Positions 21,881-22,512 of a stretch of DNA of 64,000 bases are shown here, in pieces. The stretch's first letter is position 1; every line of letters starts with the position of its first letter. Location of the stretch: the NCBI RefSeq assembly GCF_055900595.2, contig NZ_CM148325.1; one strand, written 5' to 3'. The notes below the pieces were generated by a model. That model was not told the DNA's origin and searched no databases. It saw nothing but the letters and a program-made list of their open reading frames with translations. Position numbers and translations under genes: made by a program.

Positions 21881-22512
21881 ATGAAACCAACGTCGGTGAT
21901 CATTATGGATACTCATCCTATCATCAGAATGTCTATTGAAGTTCTGTTGCAAAAAACAGTGAATTGCAGATTGTCCTGAAAACGGATGATTACCGCATAA
22001 CCATCGATTATCTCCGAACCCGTCCTGTTGATTTAATCATTATGGATATAGACTTGCCCGGTACAGACGGTTTTACCTTCCTGAAAAGGATCAAACAAAT
22101 CCAGAGTACAGTAAAAGTATTATTTTTATCATCGAAATCAGAATGCTTTTATGCTGGCAGAGCGATACAAGCTGGTGCTAACGGTTTTGTCAGTAAATGC
22201 AATGATCAGAATGATATTTTTCATGCCGTTCAGATGATCCTCTCCGGATACACTTTTTTTCCCAGCGAAACGCTCAACTATATAAAAAGCAATAAATGCA
22301 GTACGAATAGTTCAACGGTCACTGTGCTATCTAATCGTGAAGTGACCATATTACGTTATCTGGTTAGCGGATTATCTAATAAAGAAATTGCCGATAAGTT
22401 ATTACTTAGCAATAAAACAGTTAGTGCGCATAAATCTAATATTTATGGCAAGCTAGGTTTGCATTCAATTGTAGAGCTTATCGACTACGCCAAATTATAT
22501 GAATTAATATAA
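21881..22512 (+). pseudogene. fimZ: Fimbrial response regulator FimZ, apparently frameshifted (one base missing in an A-run at 21951..21956)
   Basis: ATG at 21881 gives MKPTSVIIMDTHPIIRMSIEVLLQK then TVNCRLS-stop; the track ORF 21964..22512 (QIVLKTDDYRITIDYL...LuxR HTH) is in the +2 frame; one extra A restores ...LLQKNSELQIVLK.... Confidence 0.7.

Follow-up and report, generated by a model that had tools for sequence, protein, structure and literature searches.

The fimZ gene in the window, a 64,000-nucleotide stretch of the Escherichia coli chromosome, is most probably a genuine, vertically inherited loss-of-function allele that arose by slippage in a run of seven As (A7), with the sfm fimbrial genes beside it intact. 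Passages in PMC12471899 and PMC12711010 which cite Ogawa et al. 2022 describe FimZ as the one orphan among the 34 response regulators of E. coli; the otherwise cryptic sfm pili genes are induced by phosphorylated FimZ, and about 109 genes are affected by the regulator, SOS genes among them. Passages in the same two sources (PMC12471899, PMC12711010) also describe phosphorylation-independent FimZ as acting on cell elongation through the alpha subunit of ATP synthase. A comparative study reported the sfm genes in 65% of E. coli genomes, with group B2 lacking them and partial inactivation in some other groups (PMC3604780).

Disruption of the fimZ reading frame

The window carries the gene order intD, argU, fimZ and sfmFHDCA, followed by folD, cysS, purEK and the allantoin genes. 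The fimZ gene (21881..22512, plus strand) lies between the tRNA-Arg(UCU) gene argU (21562..21638, minus strand) and the sfm chaperone-usher operon. The tRNA gene is a prophage attachment site and is abutted by an intact intD-like prophage integrase gene encoding 387 amino acids (20383..21546, plus strand). The operon comprises sfmF (22515-23030), sfmH (23041-24048), sfmD (24061-26670), sfmC (26701-27393) and sfmA (27613-28155), all on the minus strand and all intact ORFs without an internal stop, in agreement with the annotation of a near-identical locus (L004). The arrangement of argU, fimZ and sfmFHDCA is shared with E. coli K-12, whose FimZ (WP_000805428.1, NF007403) is an orphan regulator of the NarL/FixJ type. 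The window differs from the K-12 gene in having A6, not A7, at codons 24-26, by which the gene is interrupted.

The window sequence at the tract is gttctgttgcAAAAAAcagtgaattg; positions 21951-21956 on the plus strand hold a run of exactly six As. A 142-nt alignment with four other E. coli loci showed seven As in each of them and conservation of all other bases around the tract, which bears out the claim of the sequence-only reading that intact fimZ needs one more A at this deletion site. Codons 24-26 change from CAA AAA AAC to CAA AAA AC, the fimZ frame is lost after codon 25, and the resulting frameshifted pseudogene measures 631 nt against 633 including the stop codon. ORF1 (21881..21979, plus strand) starts at the native ATG and reads MKPTSVIIMDTHPIIRMSIEVLLQK, which provides 25 native FimZ residues, followed by seven out-of-frame residues (TVNCRLS) and the stop codon TGA at 21977-21979; translation from the native ATG yields 32 residues. 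ORF2 (21964..22512, plus strand) starts with TTG, reads QIVLKTDDYRITIDYL and continues through the LuxR-type helix-turn-helix (HTH), encoding 182 amino acids made up of the start and FimZ residues 30-210. Both the termination seven codons past the break and the intact remainder of FimZ in another frame from 21964 had been described in the sequence-only reading, and its coordinates were all accurate.

Insertion of one A in silico restored, as had been proposed, a FimZ protein of 210 amino acids, which matched the NCBIfam FimZ equivalog NF007403 from end to end (1-210 of 210) with 447.1 bits, against 271 bits for the curated cut-off. The window gene and the intact gene of strain E400634 agree in every base but the missing A; RefSeq annotates the E400634 coding sequence as WP_000805428.1. 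Pfam assigned residues 6-118 of the restored protein to Response_reg and residues 149-204 to GerE. ORF2 alone scored 380.7 bits against NF007403 over profile positions 29-210; it retains the phospho-acceptor Asp56 and the GerE HTH and lacks residues 1-28. Alignment to the EvgA structure 5f64 placed strand beta1, Asp10 of the acidic pocket and helix alpha1 outside ORF2. In the window, the elements of the NarL/FixJ architecture do not form one polypeptide: Asp10, beta1 and alpha1 are encoded in ORF1, Asp56 and the HTH in ORF2, and the two ORFs are in different frames.

The deletion in close relatives of the window

None of the complete RefSeq genomes was identical to the window. The nearest was strain E400634 (human stool, Kenya), which has seven As in the tract, as do the other sister genomes E600003, Z0117EC0005, E500002 and AST85. 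Loss of one nucleotide in a run of seven is a classic long-read error, and a homopolymer error of sequencing or assembly, in a strain whose true tract has seven As and whose fimZ is intact, had been one of the options of the sequence-only reading. Comparison of window positions 20777-58499 (37,723 bases) with E400634 revealed nine SNPs and one gap, the fimZ A, while the lengths of the 10 other A/T runs of seven and the 22 other runs of six in this region were all equal to those in E400634. As no other run differs in length and the gap is the only one in 37.7 kb, neither assembly has a general homopolymer problem.

Two further assemblies of the same sub-lineage, which come from different submitters and differ in contiguity, likewise have six As. 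One is a 5.35-Mb contig (GCA_964249055.1) with one SNP in 6549 bp, the other a 127-kb draft contig (GCA_016391155.1) in which about 21 kb, not counting a tandem-repeat array, differ from the window by three SNPs; NCBI lists no fimZ product for the latter. A look-up with the lineage-specific SfmD gave 24 contigs, collapsed to a single place, and yielded this draft as the one extra lineage member; the 53-amino-acid upstream-extended ORF1, looked up as an exact match, had no record. Since three separately deposited assemblies of the sub-lineage agree on six As, an assembly error is unlikely. Errors at this site may exist elsewhere, given that some public six-A assemblies are rich in indels within the same 3.9 kb (22 gap columns in locus L009 and 18 in L011) with fragmented neighbour genes, and that strain Res13 is a single six-A case amid identical seven-A haplotypes. 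Against an error in general stands the fixation of six As in a clade of 29 genomes described below, by which the shortened tract is a real biological state at the site. Altogether, we consider it quite unlikely that the window sequence is wrong here, and the heritable pseudogene, also among the options first proposed, is the reading that fits.

The intact integrase gene is common to the window and the two six-A assemblies and marks this six-A sub-lineage; among the sister genomes examined, the seven-A relatives E400634 and Z0117EC0005 carry it as an N-terminally truncated pseudogene. Upstream of 20777, the prophage region shows patchy identity of 94-98% to E400634. Within it, a full-length match to the Rfam family RNA-OUT (3868-3937, 97 bits) indicates an IS10-type element. 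At 10216-10398 on the minus strand, C4 antisense RNA (72.7 bits) and the Hfq-binding RNA isrK (60.7 bits) were matched side by side, which looks like an immunity or antitermination RNA module of the P1/P7 type. The prophage also contains a PP2C phosphatase gene beside a Ser/Thr kinase gene (Pfam PP2C and Pkinase) at about 14900-16400, corresponding to 20293-21758 of GCA_016391155.1, and this pair adjoins an HTH/Peptidase_S24 repressor.

The tandem-repeat array lies between purK and ybcF (34860-35255) and consists of four 100-bp units with 98% matches, three of which match Rfam naRNA4 (REP/BIME-type). The alignments to GCA_016391155.1 and E400634 break or shift register within it, which suggests a difference in copy number or a collapse in draft assemblies. 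A further naRNA4 copy is located at 61949-62026 (84 bits), and the enterobacterial sRNA STnc480 was matched at 43356-43422 (87 bits).

Six-A alleles across E. coli

The fimZ gene was found in 4275-4297 of 5426 complete E. coli genomes. Tract queries of 90-92 nt, including 42 nt of flank on each side, assigned seven As to about 2673 genomes at ≥99% identity, six As to 39 genomes and eight As to one genome, the latter two numbers being exact full-length matches. The ≥99% bands gave 44 (six As) and 8 (eight As) including partial matches; the counts used here are those of full-length matches with 100% identity. Identical six-A alleles in RefSeq are labelled 'fimZ, frameshifted' by PGAP and have intact sfm neighbours. 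Examples are S10 (NZ_CP010229), E189, Res13-Lact-ER01-35 and QA-1986 630, in which the same deletion results in the same two ORFs. The 182-amino-acid ORF2 product was found as an exact match on 406 public contigs of a wider protein collection, for instance as EHU95622.1 of E. coli DEC3F. Hence, the exact six-A allele is already known in the sense that it is annotated in public genomes; a literature search on fimZ and frameshift found no paper on the A tract. For Shigella, the literature notes fimZ as truncated by IS2 or as a pseudogene.

Using a 5.1-kb query from S10, we found six As in all 29 nearest complete genomes (99.9-100% identity), which were contributed by many laboratories and stem from humans, dogs, horses, chickens, cattle and wastewater. 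Most of the next relatives, at 99.4% identity, have seven As where the length was readable; it was taken from the alignment span and was unreadable for a few. The uniformity of the 29 genomes and the predominance of seven As among the 99.4% relatives indicate that six As are fixed and inherited in the S10-type clade, which is unrelated to the window. In strains GF153 and MEI2A-0323, an insertion with an IS3-family transposase interrupts the 5.1 kb between argU and sfmD, another way in which the sfm locus gets disrupted in some strains.

Fourteen sampled six-A loci with 3.9 kb flanks fell into at least nine haplotype groups separated by 10-84 SNPs. Several of these haplotypes come from assemblies without any other indel and four from assemblies in which 4-22 further gap columns occur, the indel-rich ones including loci L009, L011 and L012; part of the public six-A count may be artefactual. 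Beside the fixed clade, the 39 six-A genomes show a second, sporadic pattern, seen in Res13, which is the lone six-A case among dozens of otherwise identical seven-A haplotypes and is either a private event or an error. The alleles of S10, E189, Res13 and QA-1986 630 reside on haplotype backgrounds that differ from the window by 78-83 SNPs per 3.9 kb, and this distance indicates that the window allele arose independently of them. Independence from all the other six-A events follows from the nearest relative of the window, which is one SNP away and has seven As. For allele typing this means that a common six-A state alone is no proof of common descent, as the homopolymer is recurrently mutated.

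A frameshift that recurs at one homopolymer on at least nine haplotype backgrounds, in a gene controlling a surface structure, which is a typical target of switching, resembles the contingency loci of Neisseria, Haemophilus and Campylobacter. Frequent length changes of the A tract, as a contingency repeat, could turn FimZ and with it the Sfm fimbriae ON and OFF within populations, and a phase-variable allele had been suggested from the sequence. A contingency locus shows ON and OFF lengths among very close relatives, but only six As were found in the S10-type clade (29/29, with no seven-A revertant at ≥99.9% identity) and in the sub-lineage of the window (3/3). Species-wide, the eight-A state is almost absent, and the 39 six-A genomes stand against about 2673 with seven As. 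In contrast to the known contingency loci, the fimZ tract is short, its state is stable within clades and no frequent reversion was seen; in bacteria proficient in mismatch repair, the tracts known to vary in phase are longer than A7. As the tract length is uniform within clades, fast phase variation is very improbable, and the suggestion of a phase-variable allele finds no support. The fimZ tract behaves as a site of ordinary slippage mutagenesis and not as a switch.

Probable consequences of the split frame

A heritable pseudogene would be explained by strand slippage during replication, which presumably dropped one A from the A7 run, and such runs are a known warm spot for deletions of one nucleotide. 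The mutation would be tolerated as FimZ is dispensable. The product of the native ATG is predicted to stop at 32 residues, leaving the remaining 182 codons without an efficient start: pairing with the Shine-Dalgarno sequence is weak at TTG 21964 (-2.3 kcal/mol) and reaches -3.1 kcal/mol at best at the later in-frame starts. Any ORF2 product would lack the central beta1, Asp10 and alpha1 of the receiver fold. The strain would then make little or no functional FimZ, the sfm structural genes being intact and their activator missing. From the 32-residue ORF1, the weak starts of ORF2 and its lack of residues 1-28, we infer a null or near-null allele. The sequence-only reading had stated that the lesion, if real, removes the N-terminal part of the receiver domain; probably, however, the protein is lost altogether and no N-terminally trimmed regulator remains.

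A trimmed regulator would require that ORF2 is translated alone, and its product could then bind DNA constitutively or be dominant negative. ORF2 does keep Asp56 together with the complete GerE HTH, and the distance of 13 nt from its TTG to the downstream stop of ORF1 makes termination-reinitiation conceivable. Both the weak Shine-Dalgarno pairing at all starts and the absence of central beta1 and alpha1, by which the fragment would likely misfold, argue against such activity, which we regard as extremely unlikely.

Equally, one can ask whether the six-A allele is a leaky hypomorph that yields some full-length FimZ, either because tRNA-Lys slips by -1 on CAA-AAA-A or because RNA polymerase inserts an extra A into the transcript. 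A simulated -1 slip after AAA (21953-21955) indeed gave a product equal to wild-type FimZ. In addition, no second downstream lesion was present in any six-A allele examined, and the 182-amino-acid product is identical on its 406 contigs; the intact downstream frame carries no weight, however, since the clades are very young (≤5 SNPs per 5 kb). The zero-frame heptamer is G_CAA_AAA (codons TTG CAA AAA ACA) and not X_XXY_YYZ, the downstream RNA (21957-22030) folds with -10.2 kcal/mol, no better than shuffled sequences (z = 0.24), and an upstream Shine-Dalgarno-like stimulator was not found. Six As are also short for transcriptional slippage. Leaky recoding of the allele is therefore highly improbable.

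A programmed -1 frameshift site was rejected as a candidate, the heptamer being out of register and downstream RNA structure absent. A programmed site would have the split frame as its conserved and prevailing arrangement, and here about 2673 genomes have the single-frame seven-A allele against 39 with six As. The intact seven-A allele (12450-12458 of L004, corresponding to window 21950-21957) contains the in-frame heptamer A_AAA_AAC, with a TGA in the -1 frame after two codons. As this stop follows so closely, slippage on the intact allele would lead to a short dead-end peptide. A_AAA_AAC is the -1 frameshift motif of IS1. The likeness to IS1-type sites consists in this motif in the frame of the intact gene and in the -1 slip that would restore the wild type in the six-A allele. 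The six-A gene differs from them by its out-of-register heptamer, the lack of a stimulatory structure and the absence of any sign of use.

A combination of these elements can be envisaged in which the A7 run is a recurrently used, selectable OFF site at which different lineages would time and again silence FimZ and the Sfm fimbriae, loss being advantageous in some niche, and the six-A allele leaks wild-type FimZ by -1 slippage and can revert. We consider such a slow contingency switch, in place of simple decay, quite unlikely.

For annotation, the loss-of-function reading means that fimZ of this strain is to be treated as a frameshifted pseudogene, the outcome of an ordinary event in a dispensable regulator. 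Sfm fimbriae are expected to be silent in the strain even under conditions that induce FimZ. As about 1% of E. coli genomes have six As, the tract length is worth checking in studies of FimZ phenotypes such as Sfm pili, cell elongation and the regulon that contains SOS genes.

Two other homopolymer runs of the window served as controls for the background of one-nucleotide losses in runs of seven, both with low power. No A7 or T7 runs were found in essential genes of the window core region. For the A7 run in allC (41447-41453), an A6 query returned no exact match, the exact flanks being present in only 78 genomes. A T6 query for a T7 run within fimZ (22254-22260) likewise had no exact match, with these flanks and T7 occurring in only 172 genomes and G+T6 being the majority haplotype. 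The T7 run results from a synonymous change of ACG to ACT, which about 172 complete genomes carry where most E. coli have G+T6, and it adds to the window a second site prone to slippage, which is specific to this haplotype.
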